From: a virus
Lineage: Duplodnaviria; Heunggongvirae; Uroviricota; Caudoviricetes
DNA: 14,431 bases
Direction: 5' to 3' (one strand)
Virus record (IMG/VR): IMGVR_UViG_2531839529_000011
The translations under genes and the position numbers were made by a program. Numbering within the stretch: position 1 is the stretch's first letter; each line of letters starts with the position of its first letter. The notes beneath the pieces are model-generated. The model was given only the letters and a program-made list of their open reading frames with translations. It was not told where the DNA came from and searched no databases. Shown one piece after another: positions 1,009 to 14,431 of the stretch.

Positions 1009-1083
1009 GTCCTCTTAGTTAAATGGATATAACGAGCCCCTCCTAAGGGCTAATTGCAGGTTCGATTCCTGCAGGGGACACTT
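1009..1083 (+). tRNA. argW: tRNA-Arg (anticodon CCU)
   Basis: Cloverleaf readable by eye: acceptor GTCCTCT pairs with AGGGGAC, anticodon loop CT-CCT-AA, T-arm GGTTCGATTCC, discriminator A at 1080. Matches E. coli argW as I recall it. The 3' CCA is not encoded (gene reads ACACTTT), consistent with the island junction at the tRNA 3' end. Confidence 0.85.
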
Positions 1084-2573: not shown

Positions 2574-2867
2574 ATGCAGCATTCAACAGAGAATGAAACT
2601 ATATTCTTAGGAAATCTATGGATTGACAAAAAAATACCACCATTAGAATATTGTTCATTTGAACGCGCTTCAAGACTATTAGAATGCGAGATTGATGATT
2701 TATTACACCTATACGAAATAGGCGCTTTTAATATCGCATTCAAGGCGGATGGACTTGCAGTTAGATTTAATGTTAATTTCCTCAATAAAAATCAGAAAGT
2801 GGAAATTGACTTAATTCATCCCGTATTAACTAATCAATCACTAGAGATGGAATTTTCAACAATATAG
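2574..2867 (+). CDS. Hypothetical protein, N-terminal segment of an AT-rich cargo gene (ends at in-frame TAG)
   Basis: ATG 2574 preceded by SD agagg; about 33% GC. Terminates at TAG 2865-2867; the same frame stays open from 2868 into the next ORF. Confidence 0.5.
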   Translation: MQHSTENETIFLGNLWIDKKIPPLEYCSFERASRLLECEIDDLLHLYEIGAFNIAFKADGLAVRFNVNFLNKNQKVEIDLIHPVLTNQSLEMEFSTI

Positions 2868-2954
2868 TATGACCTTAAAGATGATTCCTTTGAACATTTT
2901 GAAAATGGGCTTCAAATTATAGGATTTGCCTGTGGTATTTGGTACGCCGATGAT

Positions 2955-3455
2955 ATGATAAGTGACATAAAAAATGGATTAGCTATAGATCCAGATTATG
3001 AATTCAGGCTTAAACCGGTAAAAATACGAGATAATGTTTTGATGGCAACGGCCTCATATGAAGGAAATAAGGTCATTGATATTCCATTTGAAGATCTTCT
3101 TATCATGCGAAGAGATTTAGAGTTAATATGGAAATCAGTAAAAACTGGAATTCCTATGCCAAGTTTACTTACGAAAAGAATTTCATCTGAACCTAAAATC
3201 CCCAAGCGATTAAATAACACTGCTGAGCATCATGCAAAAAATAGGGAGGGGTTATTAAATGCAGCCATATATATATTAGCAAAATACCCAAGCGAATGTC
3301 GTGGTGAAAGAAAAGAGATAAGTCCTGAAAAGTGGACTAACGCCATAATTAAACATTTAGGAGAGCTACCTCCAATATTTATCACTAATGAACAAGAAAT
3401 CTTAAGAAAATTACGATTAGCGGTTAATCATGCGGGATTAAAACAAAAGGGGTAG
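2955..3455 (+). CDS. Hypothetical protein, C-terminal segment of the same AT-rich cargo gene (positional analogue of the gene between int and alpA in CP4-57-type islands)
   Basis: 166-aa ORF in the same frame as 2574-2867 with no stop between 2868 and 2954. Low GC. No family recognised. Confidence 0.5.
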   Translation: MISDIKNGLAIDPDYEFRLKPVKIRDNVLMATASYEGNKVIDIPFEDLLIMRRDLELIWKSVKTGIPMPSLLTKRISSEPKIPKRLNNTAEHHAKNREGLLNAAIYILAKYPSECRGERKEISPEKWTNAIIKHLGELPPIFITNEQEILRKLRLAVNHAGLKQKG

Positions 3456-3521: not shown

Positions 3522-3549
3522 CTGCCGTGTTCATTACATAACACGGCAG
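3522..3549 (+). promoter_or_regulatory. Perfect 10-bp inverted repeat (CTGCCGTGTT / AACACGGCAG) with 8-nt loop CATTACAT, just upstream of the alpA start
   Basis: Read directly. It overlaps the expected alpA promoter/RBS region and may also terminate the upstream cargo gene. Confidence 0.4.
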
Positions 3550-3557
3550 GTAATTTC

Positions 3558-3773
3558 ATGACATTAAAAACTTATCCTATCACTGGACATGCCCGCCCAC
3601 GAGCTACTGCTGACTTTTTGCAAATAAGTACGGTTACTCTCTGGCGCTGGGAAAAGAACAATCCTGAATTTCCCAAATCTATACGCATTTCAAAACGGGT
3701 ATCTGTTTACGATGCACAAGAAATTAGGCAGTGGGTTAAAGCTCAATCAGCAGGATTGGAGGAAGTAGTGTAA
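3558..3773 (+). CDS. alpA: AlpA-family phage regulatory protein (MerR-like HTH; excision/int regulator)
   Basis: 71-aa ORF with the motif LQISTVTLWRWEKNNPEFPKSIRISKRVSVYDAQEIRQWV, typical of AlpA prophage regulators, in the canonical position downstream of a P4-type int. Confidence 0.85.
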   Translation: MTLKTYPITGHARPRATADFLQISTVTLWRWEKNNPEFPKSIRISKRVSVYDAQEIRQWVKAQSAGLEEVV

Positions 3774-4133: not shown

Positions 4134-4310
4134 ATGGCTAAACAGAAGTGTACCTGGTTATTTGCGGCGATCAACCGCAGTCAACGTAATGCCCGTCCGG
4201 TGATGTTAAGGATCACCGCAGATAACGAACGATCAGCGCGGCGCAGACTTGCCCCGGACTATGTACTGAGCTTTGCCGGGCGCATTCCCTGCGGAGGTGA
4301 ACATGCGTAA
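4134..4310 (+). CDS. Icd-like host cell-division inhibitor (small P4-family early protein)
   Basis: ATG 4134 with SD tgaggt; 58 aa MAKQKCTWLFAAINRSQRNARPVMLRITADNERSARRRLAPDYVLSFAGRIPCGGEHA. The LRITADNERSARR.LAPDY.LSFAGRIP motif matches Icd-like proteins of P4-like prophages as I recall them. The ORF track extends to a GTG at 4080. Confidence 0.55.
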   Translation: MAKQKCTWLFAAINRSQRNARPVMLRITADNERSARRRLAPDYVLSFAGRIPCGGEHA

Positions 4311-4662
4311 TTATCCGCACCCCGGCGAACGCTGGCAGCATGAACGTGGCTGGACGGTCACGATTATCCGATTAATAGAAGCCTCGCCCTCTGTGGCGCT
4401 GGTTAATCCTGAATTCAGCTGTGAAGTGCTGATACGTCATGACAGCGACAACCAGCTATCTTCCTGCCCTCTGGCATGGTTTGAACAGCGGTATACGCGC
4501 CTGTTTGATGTACCGCTCTTTAAGCCTGCACCAGCTCCTGCAGGCGGTAGTGGTTCCGGCCCGCTGACACTGCATCCGTCTGTGCTATTTATCCGCTGGC
4601 GGGAGCGTAGCATATGGCGTTCTGCTGAGCCTGACGACGGTCACTATTCAAAGTTTCTCTGA
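4303..4662 (+). CDS. Hypothetical protein (primase-operon small ORF 1)
   Basis: ATG 4303 preceded by strong SD GGAGGTG (4293-4299); overlaps the icd-like stop by 8 nt. Backbone-type GC. Confidence 0.55.
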   Translation: MRNYPHPGERWQHERGWTVTIIRLIEASPSVALVNPEFSCEVLIRHDSDNQLSSCPLAWFEQRYTRLFDVPLFKPAPAPAGGSGSGPLTLHPSVLFIRWRERSIWRSAEPDDGHYSKFL

Positions 4663-4693: not shown

Positions 4694-4978
4694 ATGAATA
4701 TTTCAAACGGGCACAACGGTGCTCAGGGCCACACTTTGCCTGAAAAACACAATACCGGTGCTTTTGCCTATGGGTTGTCAGAGGACAGTTTCGGAAAGCT
4801 GACCCGCGCAAAAAATGCCTGCGACATGCTCCAGCTTCTCTTTTCTGAATACCCGTCTCAGGCCGGAGCACTGGACGCTGGCTGTGCGCATGGTGTCGCC
4901 GCGCTGATGGAGTACCTGCTGGCAGATTTGACGGATATTGCACACAGCTGCGCACTGATTGAAGGAGGTGCCAGATGA
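4694..4978 (+). CDS. Hypothetical protein (primase-operon small ORF 2)
   Basis: ATG 4694 with SD ggag; 94 aa; stop overlaps the next start (ATGA at 4975-4978). Confidence 0.55.
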   Translation: MNISNGHNGAQGHTLPEKHNTGAFAYGLSEDSFGKLTRAKNACDMLQLLFSEYPSQAGALDAGCAHGVAALMEYLLADLTDIAHSCALIEGGAR

Positions 4979-5358
4979 ACCAGCCGCAGGTTTCCATTTT
5001 CCCGGCAGAAATGACCACCGCGCTTTACCGGCGGGCTATTGCTTCAGCATGGCGGCAGAAAATGCTGAACGAAACTGGTAGTGATCAGTATGGTCCGCAC
5101 AGCCTGACGGTGGAGCGTATTGAAATGGCCATTGCGCTGCATATCGAGTGCGTACTGATTAACGAGTACGGCGAAGTGCAGGGCGCCGCTGCCGCGCTGG
5201 CACTGCTGACTGACATGCTGGAGCCATCACTGCTGACCGCGCCGCCGGTACTGACCGCGCGCGGCTGTGAAGTGATGGCGGAGATGTACCGCACGCTTCC
5301 GGCGGCCTTTGATGACTTCTGCAGTACCGGTGTGACGTTGTATGAGGGGGAAGTATGA
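4975..5358 (+). CDS. Hypothetical protein (primase-operon small ORF 3)
   Basis: ATG 4975 with SD GGAGGTG; 127 aa; stop TGA 5356-5358 overlaps ATG 5355 (ATGA coupling to the primase's original start). Confidence 0.55.
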   Translation: MNQPQVSIFPAEMTTALYRRAIASAWRQKMLNETGSDQYGPHSLTVERIEMAIALHIECVLINEYGEVQGAAAALALLTDMLEPSLLTAPPVLTARGCEVMAEMYRTLPAAFDDFCSTGVTLYEGEV

Positions 5359-5420
5359 CAATACAGACGGTTACGCAGATTTCAGCCGCCGCACGGGGGA
5401 AATAGCCCGTTATTCTGCAG

Positions 5421-8027
5421 ATGCTGCGTATTGATGTACCTGAAAACGGCAGGCACGGCCCCTGCCCGAAATGTGGGGGCAAGGATCGTTTTCGCCTTGA
5501 TGACCTTGACGGGCGCGGGACGTGGATCTGCAGCCAGTGTGGCAATGGTGACGGTCTGGATCTGGTTAAGCTCGTAACCGGTTACAGCGTCAGAAAGGCT
5601 GCGCAGGAGGTGGCGCAGGTGCTTAATGTGCCGGATGTGCAGGAACTGCCTGTTAAGCCTGCCAGACAAAAAGCCCCTAAACGCGACATGGGTCTTACCG
5701 TGGCGGCGCTGATGAAAGAGAGCCACACGGGAGAAAGCGCCTATCTGACAGGAAAAGGGTTCGCCGGATACCCGGCCTCTCTGACCGGAAGCGTGCAGCA
5801 TATCAGCGGTAAGGATTTTCCTGCCGGTTCCCTGCTGTTACCACTCACGACCAACACCGGAGCCGTGACCGGTGCACAGCTTATCGCCCCGACGGGTGAA
5901 AAAAGCATACTGCCCGGCAGCACGATGAAAGGCGCGTTTGTGTCGCTCAGCCCGTTACCGTCTGAACCACCGGTACAGGTGGTGATTACCGAAGGTTACG
6001 CTACGGCGCTGACGGTAAGCCAGCTCACTGCCGGATGCGTAGTGGCTGCCATATCTGCGGGCAACCTGCCCAATGTGGCGCAGTCGCTGCGGGCACGCTG
6101 GCCTGAGGTAAAAATTATCATCGCCGGTGATAACGATTTTCAGGACGGGGGGGAGAATCCCGGCAGAGCCTTTGCTGAACGGGCGGCAAAAGCTGTTGGC
6201 GGCTGGATGACGCTGCCACCAGGAGAGATTAAGGCTGACTGGAATGACTTTCATCGGGAGCACGGTATTACCCGTGCCCGTGAAGCCTTTCGCAACGGTC
6301 TGGTACTGTGCGGGGAAGGCCGCACGCAACTGCCGCACGGGTTCCGTCTTACCCAGGAATATCTCTGGTATGAAAAGCAGGTACAGCGCAACGGTGAGAC
6401 GGAGATCCAGAACGTCAAAATATGCAGCCCGCTGCGCGTGACGGCAATCACCTGCGATGCCGATGGCGGTAACTTCGGACGACTGCTGGAATGGGAAGAT
6501 ACGTGGGGTGAGTGTCGCCGCTGGGCGATGCCGATGGAAATGCTGAGCGGCAGTGGTGAGGAACTGCGCCGGGTACTGCTGGTTAACGGGCTGTCTTATA
6601 TCAGCACCACCGGTGAGGCACGCGCACGCCTGATGGAATATATCTCACTGTGTAAACCGGAACGCCGCGTGACCTGCGTCAGTCGTACTGGCTGGCATGG
6701 TCAGGTTTACGTCCTGCAGGATGAGGTCAGCGGTGAAGGTGCAGAGGGTGTCATTCTCCAGACCACTTCCGTGCAGGGGCGTGATTTCCGCGTGTCGGGC
6801 ACAACAGAGGAATGGCGGGAGCATGTATCCCGCTACTGTACCGGCAACTCCCGCGTGGCATTTGCTGTCAGCCTGGCCTTTGCTGCACCACTGTTACGGC
6901 TGGTTGGTATGGACGGCGGCGGCTACCACCTAAAAGGGGAATCGACAGACGGTAAGACCACCACCATGAAAGCGGCAACCTCCGTCTGCGGCGGGCCTGA
7001 CTACTGGCAGACATGGCGGGCCACCGGCAACGCGCTGGAGGGATGCGCCAGCCGCCGCAACGATGCCGCCATGATGCTTGATGAGATCCGGGAAGTTGAC
7101 GGACGCGAGGCAGGCAATATCGCCTACATGCTGGCAAACGGTCAGGGCAAGGGCCGTGCCGGTACGGACGGTGAGCTGCGTACCCGTAAGCAGTGGCGCC
7201 TGTTGTTCTTTTCAACTGGCGAGTTGTCTCTGACCGAACATGCGGCAAAGGCCGGTGAGCGTACTTTTGCCGGGATGGAAGTCAGGATGATCCAGATCCC
7301 AAGCGATTCCGGGAAGTTTGGCGTTTTTGAGGAGCTGCACGGCTTCGACAGCGGCAAGGCTCTGGCAGAGCATCTTGAATGGGCCACGTCCTGCTACTAC
7401 GGTTCGCCGTTCCGGGAGTGGCTGAAAGCACTGACCGCTGATCTTAACGGACTAACGGCACAGGCAAAATCGCTGATGAAGGAATATGCTGCCGCCCTGA
7501 CTCCTAAAGATGCAGGCAATCAGGTGGGCCGGGCTGTGAACCGCTTTGCACTGGTGGCGATGGCAGGTGAACTGGCAACCCGTCTGGGTATCACCGGCTG
7601 GCCTGAGGGTGAAGCACTGCGGGCAACCCGCGTCTGCCTGAACGCATGGCTGAAAGATCGCGGGCACACCGCCAATCAGGAAGATATCGCCGCACTGGAG
7701 CAGGTTCGCAGTTTCTTTACCGCGAATCAGTACAGCCGCTTTGCAGACTGGTATGACGAGCGCAACCGCCCCGGCAATATGGTGGGCTGGCGCAGGGTGG
7801 AGAAAGGCAGTACCGCGCAGGGCACGGAAGCTGTCACTACGTTCTATGTCATGCCGTCCGGCTGGAAAGAAATCTGCAGGGGATTTGACCCGCGTAAGGT
7901 GGCGCGTCTGTGCGCAGATCGTGGATACCTGCTGCCCTCCACTGATGGCAAACTCCAGACAACCATTCGCCCGCCAGAGATGAATCCCCGCAGGCTCTAT
8001 GTCTTCAACAGCGAGGTGCCGGGTTAA
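5421..8027 (+). CDS. P4 alpha-type primase-helicase (zinc-binding primase N-terminus, TOPRIM, D5-like helicase with Walker A, C-terminal iteron-binding region); original N-terminus interrupted by in-frame TAG
   Basis: 868-aa ORF. CPKCGGKDRF...WICSQCGNGDG zinc ribbon; TOPRIM residues VITEGYATAL and IIAGDNDFQDGG; Walker A GESTDGKTT. An ATG at 5355 with strong SD GAGGGGG, coupled to the upstream stop, opens the same frame (MTIQTVTQISAAARGK) but hits TAG at 5403-5405; translation presumably restarts at ATG 5421. Confidence 0.9.
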   Translation: MLRIDVPENGRHGPCPKCGGKDRFRLDDLDGRGTWICSQCGNGDGLDLVKLVTGYSVRKAAQEVAQVLNVPDVQELPVKPARQKAPKRDMGLTVAALMKESHTGESAYLTGKGFAGYPASLTGSVQHISGKDFPAGSLLLPLTTNTGAVTGAQLIAPTGEKSILPGSTMKGAFVSLSPLPSEPPVQVVITEGYATALTVSQLTAGCVVAAISAGNLPNVAQSLRARWPEVKIIIAGDNDFQDGGENPGRAFAERAAKAVGGWMTLPPGEIKADWNDFHREHGITRAREAFRNGLVLCGEGRTQLPHGFRLTQEYLWYEKQVQRNGETEIQNVKICSPLRVTAITCDADGGNFGRLLEWEDTWGECRRWAMPMEMLSGSGEELRRVLLVNGLSYISTTGEARARLMEYISLCKPERRVTCVSRTGWHGQVYVLQDEVSGEGAEGVILQTTSVQGRDFRVSGTTEEWREHVSRYCTGNSRVAFAVSLAFAAPLLRLVGMDGGGYHLKGESTDGKTTTMKAATSVCGGPDYWQTWRATGNALEGCASRRNDAAMMLDEIREVDGREAGNIAYMLANGQGKGRAGTDGELRTRKQWRLLFFSTGELSLTEHAAKAGERTFAGMEVRMIQIPSDSGKFGVFEELHGFDSGKALAEHLEWATSCYYGSPFREWLKALTADLNGLTAQAKSLMKEYAAALTPKDAGNQVGRAVNRFALVAMAGELATRLGITGWPEGEALRATRVCLNAWLKDRGHTANQEDIAALEQVRSFFTANQYSRFADWYDERNRPGNMVGWRRVEKGSTAQGTEAVTTFYVMPSGWKEICRGFDPRKVARLCADRGYLLPSTDGKLQTTIRPPEMNPRRLYVFNSEVPG

Positions 8028-8061
8028 GGCTTTGCGTGAGTCTTATTTATTAAGGGTAACA

Positions 8062-8249
8062 GGTGAAACAGGTGGAACAACCGTATTTTACAGGGCTGAA
8101 CCTGTTCCACCTTCTGAAATAGTGAGGTGGAACAGATGTAACGCCAGCCAATCCGCTGTTCCACCTTGTTACCCGCGATGTTCCACCGGTGCAGTGTATA
8201 TAAATGCTTTATAAAACAAAGCAGTAACACATGTTTCACCTGTTCCACC
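8062..8249. repeat. Iteron array (putative ori/crr-like replication origin): 8 copies of TGTT(C/T)CACC / GGTG(G/A)AACA
   Basis: Copies at 8062-8070, 8071-8079, 8103-8111, 8126-8134, 8157-8165, 8179-8187, 8232-8240 and 8241-8249, in mixed orientation, flanking an AT-rich tract (tgtatataaatgctttataaaacaaa, 8205-8220). Resembles the P4 type I iteron TGTTCACC bound by alpha. Confidence 0.6.
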
Positions 8250-8337
8250 GCATCAGGGACATAAAGCAGACTGAAACAGAGGGTATTTTTATCTGGCTGG
8301 CTTTCATAGCCACGTCTGAATAACCGCAAGCGTCCGT

Positions 8338-8393
8338 TGTGCCAGCCACCACACACTGAGCACCGATAGTGTGCTTGTGTCAGCCACGACACA
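8338..8393 (+). promoter_or_regulatory. Ogr/Delta-dependent late promoter (Psid-like) with two TGT-N12-ACA dyads
   Basis: TGT-N12-ACA at 8338-8355 and 8376-8393, centres 38 bp apart. If the start site is near 8401, they sit at about -55 and -17, as recalled for P4 late promoters. Directly upstream of the sid-like gene (ATG 8428, SD aggag). Confidence 0.5.
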
Positions 8394-8427
8394 ATTGACG
8401 TAACGAACCAACCCGACAGGAGAAGTC

Positions 8428-9171
8428 ATGAACAACACCGCAGTGAATAACAACCTTTCCACTTTTCCGGCTGTAACGCAGCGGGCACTGGAAACCATGA
8501 ACACAGCCAGAAACGCATGGCTTGAAGCACGTCGTCAGCAGAAAGCGGCAGCGGATAATATTGCGACAATCCGCCAGCGTCGCGCTGAAATGGAAGCCAC
8601 GACGAACACACTGAATGAGGAGTGGCGCACGCTGTTTCGTGAAAGTCAGGGCGTGGTCTCAAAGGAAATGAAAAAACTGCGCACGGAAATTGCGCTGGGA
8701 CGAGAAACGCTTGAGGATTTTGATGAGCTGCTGGCGGCTCAGGAAAGCGAAAATGCACTTTTGCCGCAGAAAGCTGCGGAATTAGCCGGAAAGTATATCC
8801 ACGCGCATAACATTCTTGTGGATATTCGCGCAAAACAAATCTGGGAAGATTTTATGCAGTCGCATGGAAAAGCGCTTATTCAGACGCTGAGCCTGCTTAA
8901 ATCCACAATGGGCCGGGAAGCCAGTGCCGTTGTGGGTGTGGTGAATTCAGTTAATGACCCGGACACAGTGCTGAAAGACTTTATTCATAAACATATCACC
9001 AGACCGGCTCTGGCTAACGATGCGATGCCTGAACAGGACCCGGTGTTTAAACTGGCGGGAGTTGCCCCGGATTATGCGGCGCGTCTGGATTTCAGTAATC
9101 AACTCTCTCCGGCAGCTATGCATAAAATAAAGGTTCGTCAGGAACTTGCTGAGAAGGAGAAAGCTGTATGA
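8428..9171 (+). CDS. sid: Sid/Psu-family late protein, most likely external scaffold / capsid-size determination protein Sid
   Basis: 247 aa (P4 Sid is about 244 aa), coiled-coil-rich, first gene behind the Delta-type late promoter. Shares the YI.(A/S)H ... DFMQ.HG.AL motif with Psu-family proteins. Stop overlaps the next start (ATGA 9168-9171). Confidence 0.55.
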   Translation: MNNTAVNNNLSTFPAVTQRALETMNTARNAWLEARRQQKAAADNIATIRQRRAEMEATTNTLNEEWRTLFRESQGVVSKEMKKLRTEIALGRETLEDFDELLAAQESENALLPQKAAELAGKYIHAHNILVDIRAKQIWEDFMQSHGKALIQTLSLLKSTMGREASAVVGVVNSVNDPDTVLKDFIHKHITRPALANDAMPEQDPVFKLAGVAPDYAARLDFSNQLSPAAMHKIKVRQELAEKEKAV

Positions 9172-9293
9172 CGGCCCGAGGCACACCTGACCAGGCACTT
9201 ACCAGTTTTCGGAATGCCCGTATTCTGTGGGCCGGACATAGTGAGACCCGAAAAGCCGTTGAACAACAGATAGCATCTCTCCTCGCTGCGTAA
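9168..9293 (+). pseudogene. psu: psu-like (polarity suppression protein) N-terminal fragment, truncated by the IS66-family insertion
   Basis: ATG 9168 with strong SD aaggag, translationally coupled to sid. Reading frame runs to the IS boundary at 9290 and stops at TAA 9291-9293 inside the IS terminal repeat. Confidence 0.55.
9282..9289. repeat. Left copy of the 8-bp target-site duplication CTCGCTGC flanking the IS66-family element
   Basis: Identical octamer immediately outside both IS ends. Confidence 0.8.
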
Positions 9294-9342
9294 CCGGCTC
9301 ATTTAAACCGTCTGGTCTGTTTCCTCCGGCTCTACAAAAATA

Positions 9343-10020
9343 ATGTCCATCATTTTTAATGGACACTATCGTATGAAACACCGGACCTGGATCACTGAAG
9401 CTTTACGTCTTCACTTTGAAGAACATTTACCCCGGGTTGTGGCCGGGCGTCGCCTGGGTGTACCAAAATCAACAGTTTGTAGTATGTTCGTGCGCTTTCG
9501 GAGAGCTGGCCTTTCGTGGCCTTTGCCCGCAGGCATGTCGGAGCAGGAACTTGATGCCTGCCTTTACGGACAATTTTCCACGGTACCAGTCGTACGTCCT
9601 GAAAGCACCGTTATATCCGAAGCCCCCGTGGTAAAAAAACGTCCCCGGCGGCCCAACTTCCCTTATGAGTTTAAAATCGCCTTAGTGGAGCAGTCACTGC
9701 AGCCCGGAGCCTGTGTGGCGCAGATCGCCCGGGAAAACGGAATCAACGATAACCTGCTCTTCAACTGGCGCCATCAATACCGGAAAGGTGGCCTGCTGCC
9801 TTCCGGAAAAAATATGCCGGCACTGCTTCCCGTGACGTTAACGCCGGAGCCGGATAATAAAATCCCGGCCCCCGCACAGGAACCAGAGCAGATAAATACA
9901 CCGTCCGACAGTCTGTGTTGTGAGCTGGTTCTGCCGGCCGGAACTCTCAGGCTTAAAGGTAAACTGACGCCGGCGTTATTACAGACACTTATCCGCGAAA
10001 TAAAAGGGAGCAGCCACTGA
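9343..10020 (+). CDS. tnpA: IS66-family accessory protein TnpA (orfA; HTH)
   Basis: 225-aa ORF; RRPNFPYEFKIALVEQSLQPGACVAQIARENGINDNLLFNWRHQYRKG is a transposase-type HTH. Start uncertain (ATG 9343 or 9373; neither has a strong SD). Stop TGA overlaps the tnpB start. Confidence 0.7.
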   Translation: MSIIFNGHYRMKHRTWITEALRLHFEEHLPRVVAGRRLGVPKSTVCSMFVRFRRAGLSWPLPAGMSEQELDACLYGQFSTVPVVRPESTVISEAPVVKKRPRRPNFPYEFKIALVEQSLQPGACVAQIARENGINDNLLFNWRHQYRKGGLLPSGKNMPALLPVTLTPEPDNKIPAPAQEPEQINTPSDSLCCELVLPAGTLRLKGKLTPALLQTLIREIKGSSH

Positions 10021-10367
10021 TGATATCTCTCCCTGCAGGTTCGCGTATCTGGCTGGTTGCAGGTATCACCGATATGCGAAATGGCTTTAACGGCCTGGCA
10101 TCAAAAGTTCAGAACGTCCTGAAGGATGACCCGTTCTCCGGACACCTGTTCATCTTCCGCGGACGCCGGGGTGACCAGATAAAAGTGTTGTGGGCTGACA
10201 GTGACGGACTGTGCCTCTTCACCAAACGCCTGGAGCGGGGCCGCTTCGTCTGGCCAGTCACCCGTGACGGCAAGGTGCACCTTACTCCGGCTCAGTTATC
10301 CATGCTTCTTGAAGGTATCAACTGGAAGCACCCGAAACGAACGGAACGCGCTGGAATCCGCATATAA
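10020..10367 (+). CDS. tnpB: IS66-family TnpB (orfB)
   Basis: 115 aa MISLPAGSRIWLVAGITDMRNGFNGLA... recognised as the conserved IS66 orfB product; start overlaps the orfA stop (TGATG). Confidence 0.85.
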   Translation: MISLPAGSRIWLVAGITDMRNGFNGLASKVQNVLKDDPFSGHLFIFRGRRGDQIKVLWADSDGLCLFTKRLERGRFVWPVTRDGKVHLTPAQLSMLLEGINWKHPKRTERAGIRI

Positions 10368-10386
10368 CCCGTTGTAAAGTGAGGAT

Positions 10387-11958
10387 ATGGACACCTCACT
10401 TGCTCATGAGAACGCCCGCCTGCGGGCACTGTTGCAGACGCAACAGGACACCATCCGCCAGATGGCTGAATACAACCGCCTGCTCTCACAGCGGGTGGCG
10501 GCTTATGCTTCCGAAATCAACCGGCTGAAGGCGCTGGTTGCGAAACTGCAACGTATGCAGTTCGGTAAAAGCTCAGAAAAACTTCGTGCAAAAACCGAAC
10601 GGCAGATACAGGAAGCACAGGAGCGAATCAGCGCACTTCAGGAAGAAATGGCGGAAACGCTGGGTGAGCAATATGACCCGGTACTGCCATCCGCCCTGCG
10701 CCAGTCTTCAGCCCGTAAACCGTTACCGGCCTCACTTCCCCGTGAAACCCGGGTTATCCGGCCGGAAGAGGAATGCTGTCCTGCCTGTGGTGGTGAACTC
10801 AGTTCTCTGGGATGTGATGTGTCAGAGCAACTGGAGCTTATCAGCAGCGCCTTTAAGGTTATCGAAACACAACGTCCGAAACAGGCCTGTTGCCGGTGCG
10901 ACCATATCGTGCAGGCACCAGTACCTTCAAAACCCATTGCACGCAGTTATGCCGGAGCGGGGCTTCTGGCCCATGTTGTCACCGGGAAATATGCAGACCA
11001 TCTGCCGTTATACCGCCAGTCAGAAATATACCGTCGTCAGGGAGTGGAGCTGAGCCGTGCCACACTGGGGCGCTGGACAGGTGCTGTTGCTGAACTGCTG
11101 GAGCCGCTGTATGACGTCCTGCGCCAGTATGTGCTGATGCCCGGTAAAGTCCATGCTGATGATATCCCCGTCCTGGTCCAGGAGCCGGGCAGCGGTAAAA
11201 CCCGGACAGCCCGGCTGTGGGTCTACGTCCGTGATGACCGTAACGCCGGTTCACAGATGCCCCCGGCGGTCTGGTTCGCGTACAGTCCGGACCGGAAAGG
11301 TATCCATCCACAAAATCACCTGGCCGGTTACAGCGGTGTGCTTCAGGCCGATGCTTACGGTGGTTACCGGGCGTTATACGAATCCGGCAGAATAACGGAA
11401 GCCGCGTGTATGGCTCATGCCCGGAGAAAAATCCACGATGTGCATGCAAGAGCGCCCACCTACATCACCACGGAAGCCCTGCAGCGTATCGGTGAACTGT
11501 ATGCCATCGAGGCAGAGGTCCGGGGCTGTTCAGCAGAACAGCGTCTGGCGGCAAGAAAAGCCAGAGCCGCGCCACTGATGCAGTCACTGTATGACTGGAT
11601 ACAGCAACAGATGAAAACACTGTCGCGTCACTCAGATACGGCAAAAGCGTTCGCATACCTGCTGAAACAGTGGGATGCACTGAACGTGTACTGCAGTAAT
11701 GGCTGGGTGGAAATCGACAACAACATCGCAGAGAACGCCTTACGGGGAGTGGCCGTAGGCCGGAAAAACTGGATGTTCGCGGGTTCCGACAGCGGTGGTG
11801 AACATGCGGCGGTGTTGTACTCGCTGATCGGCACATGCCGTCTGAACAATGTGGAGCCAGAAAAGTGGCTGCGTTACGTCATTGAACATATCCAGGATTG
11901 GCCGGCAAACCGGGTACGCGATCTGTTGCCCTGGAAAGTTGATCTGAGCTCTCAGTAA
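10387..11958 (+). CDS. tnpC: IS66-family transposase TnpC (orfC)
   Basis: 523 aa with N-terminal leucine-zipper-like coiled coil, CPACGG...CCRC zinc-finger region and the IS66 DDE core. Recognised IS66 transposase family. Confidence 0.9.
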
Positions 11959-11988
11959 ATATCAATACGGTTCTGACGAGTCGCTTAC

Positions 11989-11996
11989 CTCGCTGC
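11989..11996. repeat. Right copy of the 8-bp target-site duplication CTCGCTGC
   Basis: Identical to 9282-9289, immediately after the right IS end (...CGCTTAC at 11988). Confidence 0.8.
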
Positions 11997-12967: not shown

Positions 12968-14431
12968 CTACCCATGACATTTTTTGAATTTTTTTCCTGA
13001 GCCACAATAGCAAGGCTCATTTCTTCCCATTTTTTTTTCATTATTAACTATAGGGAATGTAGACATATATGATGTCGGCTTAGGCAAGATGTCTGTAAGA
13101 ACGCTATACTCCTTCATGGATTTTTTCGCTAATAAGCGCTCATCCTTTGTAAGTGGCTCATCAAACTTACAATAAACAACATCTTCAGAACGGCCCTCAG
13201 AATCTTTGCTTTCCGTTGCAATAATTATCAACTTCTTAATTTGACTGTATTTATACTTCGCCACTAGTGCATACATTTGCACGCAAGAAAAACGCTCCAA
13301 TCTATATTTTTCATATGATAACCCTTCATCACGCGGAAAGAACAAAAAAATATAATATTTGCCTTTTTCGTCAATCGACTCAACAATCCTAGAACTTCTT
13401 CTATTAGTAGGAACCTGTTTGAACTTTTCTATAAATGCCTTAGAAAGATGATATCTTGACACTCTGCTTTCTGCTGCCAGTTGTCTAACTGTTTCCTCAT
13501 GACTATGAAAGTCATTTTCTATACCCAAACCTACAGTTGCAGTAAGAATTGATTCCGAAAGTCTCTGTATCATTTCATCCCAAAACACACTTCCTTTTTT
13601 CATTGCCTTGTAATAATCATACTGAGGAGATTTTTTTAACACTTCCCACTCATTTTCTGCTATTTGCACAAATGTATTTTCAGGTACCAATTTCTCATCT
13701 ACAATCACCCCATGCCCGCTCAAATATGCAGCCAAAGTATCATCTTCTCCTGGACTTAATCTCAGAAGGCCAGAACGGACAACACGTTCCTTCTCTTTCA
13801 AGTAACTAACAAAGTCAGTAATTGTATCTAACTCCGACAATAAGAGATTTAATGACAATTCATCTAACACATGAACAAATGTTTTATTTGGATAAATATC
13901 TCCAATGGAAAAAGGTTGCTCCATACTTTCCTTTATTCCAAATGAGAAAACATTCATGAGAGTACCAGAACTCCCTTCAGCTATACGTGAAAAAAAATTA
14001 GATGCAGGAACCGAACTATTATTGGTTACAGCGATAAGGAAAAACCTCATATCTCTATTTATTTTAACTGGAAAGGGAACTTTGCATTTTTTATCTAAGA
14101 ACAATCGTCCATGATGATCTTTTAAAAACTTCTCTGCCCCATGTAACTGAACAGCCGATTCAGTTATGGATCTTTTAAACCATCTTTTCCATGCTATAGA
14201 AACTTCAATCTCTTCGTTAAAGTTAATATCCTTATCTGAAAATAAAATCACATTATCTTCAAAAACAACTAATAAATCACACACCTCCTTCCCCGATTTG
14301 TTTTTAGAAAGCCCTTCATCACTATACACATTAGGATATGACCATAAACCAATAAACGCACTATTAGCCAGTTCTATTAATCTTTTTTCAGTTTGATTAA
14401 CTCCCTGCCCTTTGTTAATCACTTTTAACAT
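12968..14431 (-). CDS. 487-aa protein of unknown function with C-terminal SEC-C zinc-binding motif; low-GC cargo in the P4-type hotspot position (candidate defence protein)
   Basis: Complete ORF whose ATG is the last three bases of the window. C-terminus ...[17 protein letters not shown] is a canonical SEC-C motif (as at the SecA C-terminus and in YecA). About 30-33% GC against about 55-63% in the backbone. No family recognised for the body. Confidence 0.8.

Follow-up and report, generated by a model that had tools for sequence, protein, structure and literature searches.

A P4-like satellite island of Escherichia coli with a probable recent nonsense mutation in its replication primase-helicase gene

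In the window, that is, the whole 14,431-nt stretch of DNA that was analysed (IMG/VR record IMGVR_UViG_2531839529_000011), a P4-like satellite very probably carries a replication primase-helicase gene that was recently interrupted, in one lineage only, by a nonsense change (G5404A) of Trp17 to amber. The gene is by descent a member of the P4-alpha-type primase domain family and the allele is broken; as an event this is an ordinary gene knock-out.

Start region and reading frame

The elements of the gene and its start region are the following.

4975..5358, plus strand: upstream DUF5375 gene, whose stop TGA at 5356-5358 overlaps the primase ATG (ATGA)
5344..5350, plus strand: Shine-Dalgarno (SD) sequence GAGGGGG of the true start, anti-SD duplex energy -11.4 kcal/mol
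5355..8027, plus strand: ancestral primase-helicase gene, 890 codons (2673 nt), with zinc ribbon, Toprim and DUF927 domains, interrupted at codon 17
5355..5405, plus strand: leftover 16-codon frame, MTIQTVTQISAAARGK then stop, the same as codons 1-16 of the relatives
5403..5405, plus strand: amber codon TAG; base 5404 is A, where the relatives all have G (TGG, Trp17)
5421..8027, plus strand: leftover open frame of 868 aa, beginning at the first in-frame ATG 3' of the stop; SD-less, possible weak restart site

The sequence reads as the initial annotation had described it, with an ATG at 5355-5357 behind a strong SD, an ATGA overlap that gives translational coupling to the DUF5375 gene, and a frame that translates as MTIQTVTQISAAARGK*, meets TAG at 5403-5405 and continues with PVILQ to a Met at 5421. 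The anti-SD energy at 5355 beats that of all 51 internal ATGs, and the value at 5421 (+1.2 kcal/mol) is weaker than that of 96% of them and bears out the earlier statement that this codon is without an SD. The spacer between TAG and AUG 5421 is 15 nt. RNA folding around the stop and restart site was no more stable than in shuffled sequences (z = 0.20), and there is therefore no structural element to invoke there.

The closest relatives, the enterotoxigenic E. coli (ETEC) chromosomes ATCC 43896, E36, 504838 and 025542-1, all carry TGG at codon 17 and differ from the window there by the single base at 5404, as expected from the Trp-to-stop change that had been proposed. RefSeq annotates an 890-aa coding sequence from the equivalent of 5355 in the intact relatives examined, and homologue N-termini align to the same start, which establishes it as the true one. 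An independent micro-ORF at 5355-5405 is contradicted by these comparisons, since the relatives read straight through. Within 5200-5700 the stop is the sole difference from the nearest relative (99.8% identity) and is thus not one of the stops that non-coding DNA contains by chance, and the lack of any further substitution in 5421-8027 relative to ATCC 43896, E36 and 025542-1 indicates that the change is recent. Elsewhere, the primase-helicase gene has been broken separately in other strains, by IS3 or by a frameshift. The undamaged state of the downstream frame is an observation that would fit either a very recent event or continued use.

Conservation of the missing N-terminus

A homologue search with the 120-aa N-terminus alone gave short fragments and was rerun with the full protein. 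Trp17 was then found in all 111 full-length homologues (57-100% identity), within a conserved N-terminal pattern of V6, A12, G15, R16, W17, I20 and L21, and the Trp was also invariant in homologue fragments down to 39% identity. Methionine occurs at the equivalent of Met23 in only 8 of 112 homologues. One apparent natural homologue starting at that position, P0096, was rejected as a gene-caller start mis-call after its upstream DNA was found to encode an intact N-terminus, leaving the possibility that homologues consistently begin at the equivalent of 5421 without an example. In the AF2 model, helices at residues 6-13 and 17-23 lie directly before the zinc ribbon (pLDDT 70-89). This conserved segment with its Trp is present in all relatives and absent from the product encoded in the window, where the Trp codon is TAG. 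A literature search on the function of the extreme N-terminus of P4 alpha yielded nothing usable.

Domain composition and known relatives

Pfam annotation of the intact protein identified Zn_Ribbon_Prim at residues 32-68, Toprim_3 at 209-304 and DUF927 at 330-612. The zinc ribbon (PF08273; E 1e-16) scores above the gathering score and occupies residues 10-46 of the 868-aa product; Toprim_3 (E 1e-13) contains the EGYATA motif, with ITEGYATALTV aligning to IAEGYATALTV of P4 alpha; and DUF927 (PF06048; E 2e-90) is matched across the full model, with the P-loop KGESTDGKTTT invariant in 62 homologues. The 22 lost residues fall outside every Pfam model and the 868-aa product keeps all three domains at unchanged scores, so a truncated protein, if made, could keep some activity.

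The analogy to the N-terminus of P4 alpha on which the initial annotation had drawn is supported, with the likeness confined to the primase half. Both proteins are replicases of P2-type satellites and share an N-terminal G-x-W-P-x-I-L-x-x-L-G-I segment followed by the zinc ribbon and a Toprim domain with EGYATA, at 38% identity over residues 5-316, with Trp16 of P4, in ALGHWPRILPALGI, aligned to Trp17. Homology does not extend beyond the primase half, tblastn against P4 having aligned residues 6-316 only, with the helicase/origin-binding half here being DUF927 rather than the P4 alpha C-terminal region; the C-terminal homology that full-length orthology to P4 alpha entails was not found. The DUF927 part instead resembles two replication initiator helicases of other mobile islands, SaPIbov1 Rep (PDB 8tch; E 4.5e-15 in sequence and 1e-10 in a Foldseek comparison of folds) and SCCmec Cch (PDB 5dgk; E 2.9e-13 and 2e-9, respectively), but these matches span only residues ~415-643 and leave the primase half (1-320) unmatched.

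The satellite island and its other lesions

In an E. coli lineage of enterotoxigenic type, the island sits beside yfdC at a tRNA-Arg(CCT) gene (argW satellite). Its attachment site and two further lesions are as follows.

1009..1081, plus strand: tRNA-Arg (CCT), whose 3' end at 1061-1076, TTCGATTCCTGCAGGG, is the attL core of the island
2865..2867, plus strand: second amber (2866 G>A, TGG>TAG, Trp98), splitting the 293-aa gene at 2574-3455 into 97 + 166 aa
9290..11988, plus strand: ISCro1 (IS66 family) in psu, with an 8-bp target duplication, CTCGCTGC, at 9282-9289 and 11989-11996

The 16-nt att direct repeat recurs 13.9 kb downstream in L008, ~510 nt past the end of the window. Clustered beside the tRNA-Arg gene is a P4-like satellite gene set with Pfam matches to Phage_integrase, Phage_AlpA, Psu (twice) and Ogr_Delta, in an order (int, alpA ... 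primase, sid-like, psu, delta; one strand) that differs from that of P4. With respect to an epsilon/Ash homologue, a Phage_ASH match was found on none of the called genes of the island and was present in a related metagenomic island. The small genes at 4303-4662 and 4694-4978 had only PHROG matches of unknown function, and neither a sigma-70-like promoter nor an intrinsic terminator was found in the spacer at 8027-8428.

Across the whole 11-kb island, comparison with an IS-free relative revealed only three events, the primase amber, the 2866 amber and ISCro1 in psu, all of them inactivating. An apparent inversion of the IS66 element relative to ATCC 43896 proved to be an independent insertion at another site, and Dcm-site deamination was rejected as the cause of both G>A changes, neither site, as read from the sequence, lying in CCWGG. 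A tentative explanation for this pattern, less likely than not, is that both ambers and the IS insertion reflect no neutral decay but were each favoured because the activity of the satellite, or that of the primase and the 293-aa gene, burdened the host lineage. That all three differences are inactivating speaks for selection, as do the chance of ~0.0007-0.0026 that two of two random substitutions would be nonsense (~0.03-0.05 for the second given the first) and the finding that no intermediate with a single amber was seen among the contigs examined. However, two substitutions are a tiny sample, drawn from a window that was noticed for a stop codon and hence subject to ascertainment bias; the 293-aa gene has no Pfam, PHROG or PADLOC match to suggest a function; and psu is dispensable in P4. 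Selection of this kind concerns why the mutation was fixed, not what the mutation is, and is compatible with a recent nonsense mutation in the replicase gene.

In P4-like satellites, core genes are often found as pseudogenes (PMC8628076). The present case resembles the pseudogenised core genes described there (alpA pseudogenes and alpha-less and psu-less variants; Moura de Sousa and Rocha 2021, PMC8628076) in that an early stop kills a core gene while the rest of the element is kept. It differs in that an alpha-type gene has been hit by a point nonsense mutation, that this is restricted to a single young lineage and that another amber and an IS insertion go with it, whereas the reported alpA pseudogenes are frameshifts conserved across clades.

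Predicted consequences for expression

Under the recent nonsense mutation, ribosomes would load at the strong SD of 5355, also through coupling to the DUF5375 gene, and would stop at UAG after a peptide of 16 residues. Most would presumably be released there, giving little or no primase-helicase, and Rho-dependent termination and decay may in addition act on the 2.6 kb of message left untranslated. A minority of ribosomes may restart at AUG 5421 across the SD-less 15-nt spacer, in which case the product would be without residues 1-22, which make up predicted helix 1 and the greater part of predicted helix 2, the one that starts with the invariant Trp. The net effect is most likely a null or severe hypomorph of the satellite replicase, and the island is therefore probably no longer able to replicate after induction, alpha being essential for P4 replication (PMC8628076). 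Such an island would be on its way to becoming an immobile remnant.

It is unlikely that restart at AUG 5421 is efficient and the protein minus residues 1-22 an adequate replicase, so that the mutation merely lowers expression. AUG 5421 is the first start codon past the stop, in frame and at a distance within the range (<25 nt) optimal for coupling or restart (PMC7538156) and inside the scanning radius of >40 nt that PMC5972666 cites from Adhin and van Duin; nothing interrupts the downstream ORF, and every Pfam domain is kept; and restart after premature stops is documented for E. coli in the accounts given by PMC7538156 (citing Karamyshev 2004) and PMC5972666. The resemblance to those cases, i.e. 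the phoA premature stops of Karamyshev 2004 and the scanning model of Adhin and van Duin as these accounts present them, extends to an early in-frame stop, an in-frame AUG within 15 nt and a strongly translated upstream frame. However, the scanning work, as described in PMC5972666, saw restart at starts with an SD-like sequence, which the codon here does not have, restart at 5421 being only a possibility, and genome-wide data speak against restart as a major route in E. coli (PMC7538156). Further, the lost segment is conserved, its Trp is invariant in every homologue and no natural homologue begins at the 5421 equivalent. Still less credence is given to a wider scheme in which the lesions represent a selected stepwise shut-down of a costly satellite, or in which the leader and SD-less restart set a deliberately low level of a shortened working replicase.

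Decoding of UAG at a useful rate, by a lineage suppressor tRNA or a near-cognate tRNA, would yield a full-length protein substituted at position 17. The two stops newly formed in the island are each amber, not opal or ochre, and the base after the primase UAG is C, which reportedly, according to Poole, Brown and Tate in 1995, makes a comparatively weak termination context in E. coli. Nevertheless, G>A can turn TGG into TAG or TGA only, so that two ambers are a 1-in-4 outcome; the second amber is followed by T; the window has no tRNA besides a normal tRNA-Arg CCT; and decoding as anything but Trp would change an invariant residue. Read-through of this kind is accordingly judged very improbable.

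Distribution of the amber allele

The amber allele is genuine and has been inherited. No difference separates the window from GCA_000355175.1, and the exact 868-aa product was found on 26 contigs (NCBI, ENA, Logan), being deposited as EMX93069.1 and others. The primase amber was always accompanied by the 2866 amber and by the ISCro1 insertion in psu, and both ambers were present in 24 of the 24 contigs read. Among complete E. coli genomes, TAG occurred in 0 of the 308 carrying the segment and the second amber at 2866 in 0 of 66. When GTDB species representatives and JGI metagenome contigs were scanned for an exact 36-nt match, the TAG allele was not recovered; these scans were uninformative, as the allele was later found via an exact-protein index. 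A sequencing or assembly error with a true codon of TGG, suggested by the single-base difference from all complete genomes, is effectively refuted by the same base in four independently assembled NCBI genomes with 0 differences from the window over 9-14 kb and by the repeated recovery of the product with its two companion lesions. The window-type allele thereby has the features of a recent nonsense pseudogene, namely a sense codon in close relatives, an otherwise intact frame and reproducibility across independent assemblies.

Significance

The importance of the mutation beyond annotation is small. The 868-aa protein in the databases represents a broken gene called in truncated form and not a natural short isoform, and the argW satellite of this lineage is very probably replication-defective and is not to be counted as an active P4-like satellite. 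The allele could serve as a natural knock-out with which to probe the N-terminal Trp helix in the primase family, and the three inactivating differences out of three provide a small, concrete example of the quick disabling of a satellite within a host lineage.

Origin of the amber codon

The start region of the primase-helicase gene comprises the following features:

4975-5358, + strand: DUF5375 gene, upstream of the primase-helicase gene
5344-5350, + strand: Shine-Dalgarno sequence GAGGGGG, preceding ATG 5355
5355, + strand: primase-helicase start ATG, in an ATGA overlap with the TGA of the DUF5375 gene

From ATG 5355 the frame reads MTIQTVTQISAAARGK, reaches TAG at 5403-5405 and continues through PVILQ to a methionine at 5421, from which an 868-codon frame extends to 8027, exactly the arrangement described in the initial annotation. 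The strong ribosome-binding site at 5355 and lack of one at 5421 that it had noted were borne out quantitatively: pairing with the 16S 3' end upstream of 5355 amounts to -11.4 kcal/mol, a more favourable value than all 51 internal ATGs give, vs +1.2 kcal/mol, effectively none, upstream of 5421. Its assignment of 5355 as the true start agrees with the RefSeq coding sequence of the intact relatives examined (2673 nt, 'TOPRIM and DUF927 domain-containing protein'), which begins at the equivalent position. The segment 5200-5700 was found in 331 complete E. coli genomes, the best match differing by one base. DNA alignment placed this difference at position 5404, A in the window and G in relatives, converting TGG (Trp17) to TAG as had been proposed and leaving the downstream frame otherwise unchanged; it was confirmed base by base against the enterotoxigenic E. 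coli (ETEC) strain ATCC 43896. Both the observation and its interpretation are thus supported overall.

The TAG allele was present in none of 308 complete genomes carrying the segment (57-nt probe centred on the codon). Four NCBI assemblies carry it and are identical to the window across all shared bases, GCA_000355175.1 over all 14431 bases; many public assemblies have an index entry for precisely this 868-aa product, whose exact sequence, deposited under several accession numbers (e.g. EMX93069.1), is present on 26 contigs. Because it is identical in several assemblies and recurs on these 26 contigs, the allele is inherited within a young clone, and there is next to no chance that it is a sequencing error.

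Conservation of the lost N-terminal segment

None of the Pfam domains (zinc ribbon, residues 32-68; Toprim, 209-304; DUF927, 330-612), for which the 868-aa product scores unchanged, includes the 22 lost residues. Despite this, the segment is conserved: Trp17 is present in 111/111 full-length homologues covering the position (57-100% identity), V6, A12, G15, R16, I20 and L21 are strongly conserved among full-length homologues, and the Trp is invariant also among N-terminal fragments, down to 39% identity. Methionine occupies position 23 in only 8 of 112 homologues. In phage P4 alpha, the residue aligned to Trp17 is Trp16, within ALGHWPRILPALGI, in keeping with the analogy to P4-alpha-like N-termini drawn in the initial annotation. 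An AlphaFold model (62 homologues) predicts short helices at residues 6-13 and 17-23 directly before the zinc ribbon (pLDDT 70-89).

The sole homologue apparently starting at the Met23 (5421) equivalent, P0096, was rejected as a start mis-call (L014 1435-1503; JGI metagenome contig Ga0122802_10025), its upstream in-frame DNA encoding MRLHTVTEVSTAARGRWPHILSMLGIDIP, an intact conserved N-terminus with the Trp and the same ATGA overlap. The related island on this contig also has Phage_ASH and a P2-type capsid gene.

Expected effect on translation

Translation would begin at 5355 and end after a peptide of 16 residues, and most ribosomes would probably not go on. A fraction of them may start again at AUG 5421, 15 nt downstream, and any product of such restart would lack the Trp helix. 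This distance falls within coupling range, for which an optimum of <25 nt (PMC7538156) and, in the part of PMC5972666 citing Adhin and van Duin, a scanning radius of >40 nt are given. However, there is no Shine-Dalgarno sequence at 5421 and efficient restart is tied to an SD-like sequence (PMC7538156, PMC5972666), so that a functional short form appears unlikely; the ribosome-profiling study also argues against restart as a major route in E. coli (PMC7538156). Given the early amber, the missing Shine-Dalgarno sequence, these sources and the loss of the Trp helix, the allele is most probably a null or severe hypomorph. Useful read-through of the amber is highly improbable.

The island and its replicase

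The element lies between tRNA-Arg(CCT) and its 3'-end repeat 13.9 kb downstream, with the following features:

L008 (locus) 3641-3656 and 17521-17536; window 1061-1076 and ~510 nt beyond the window end: attL/attR, 16-nt perfect direct repeat TTCGATTCCTGCAGGG, the tRNA-Arg 3' end
1108-1120 and 3530-3542: common short sequence TTCATTACATAAC
1170-1189 and 3547-3566: common short sequence CAG(T/G)TAATTTCATGACATTA, spanning alpA ATG 3558
12968-14431, - strand: YecA/SEC-C cargo gene, 487 aa, between delta and attR

The gene order is integrase, a 293-aa gene without a family match, AlpA, Icd-like, small genes of unknown function, DUF5375, primase-helicase, Sid-like Psu-family protein, Psu, Ogr/Delta and the SEC-C cargo gene, and with this content the island is a P4-like satellite as PMC8628076 uses the term. 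The order differs from that of P4, and no Ash/epsilon homologue was detected among the island genes. The cargo gene occupies the position of variable genes in such islands; no defence system was identified, the only PADLOC matches (E ~1e-6) covering the gene's C-terminal 25-residue SEC-C motif. The two short sequences, each occurring once between attL and the integrase gene and once around the alpA start, are candidate binding sites for a regulator or a recombination-directionality factor; alternatively, they may stem from duplication of the alpA 5' end.

The first 316 residues of the primase-helicase are P4-alpha-like (38% identity, zinc ribbon and EGYATA Toprim motif) and resemble DnaG and T7 gp4 primase structures, whereas the remainder is DUF927, with both sequence and fold matches to the helicases SaPIbov1 Rep and SCCmec Cch. 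On this basis the protein is the island's replicase but does not count as a full-length orthologue of P4 alpha.

Further lesions in the island

Relative to strain 025542-1, which lacks ISCro1, the whole island has only three differences, G5404A and the following two:

2865-2867, + strand: second amber, G2866A, TGG to TAG at Trp98 of the 293-aa gene (2574-3455)
9290-11988: ISCro1 (IS66 family), 2.7 kb, in psu after ~codon 41, with 8-bp target duplication CTCGCTGC at 9282-9289 and 11989-11996

The second amber divides the integrase-neighbouring gene, which has no Pfam, PHROG or PADLOC match, into 97 + 166 aa, and was found in 0/66 complete E. coli genomes having the site. Both ambers and ISCro1 occur together in all contigs examined; tnpA, tnpB and the transposase are intact in the window. 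The ETEC sisters ATCC 43896, E36 and 504838 have this IS at a different site, in delta, and in opposite orientation; sister lineages have thus acquired independent insertions in a single island. The island is intact at its ends and in the integrase gene, despite three disrupted internal genes.

Under a uniform model, the probability that both of two substitutions are nonsense is ~0.001; given that the first drew attention to the window, the chance of the second being nonsense is ~0.03-0.05. With a sample of two events, this is suggestive of selection for silencing. Decay of the primase-helicase gene is recurrent, since other E. coli strains carry independent disruptions of it, OW1E2 and CREC-629 through IS3 insertion close to the 3' end and A1.S1.160 through a frameshift.

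G5404A is a recent nonsense mutation of an ordinary kind, affecting a known gene family in a known type of mobile element. Its general interest is low, its main use being correct annotation of the gene as a pseudogene rather than a short isoform, and it provides a small example of satellite inactivation by multiple hits.
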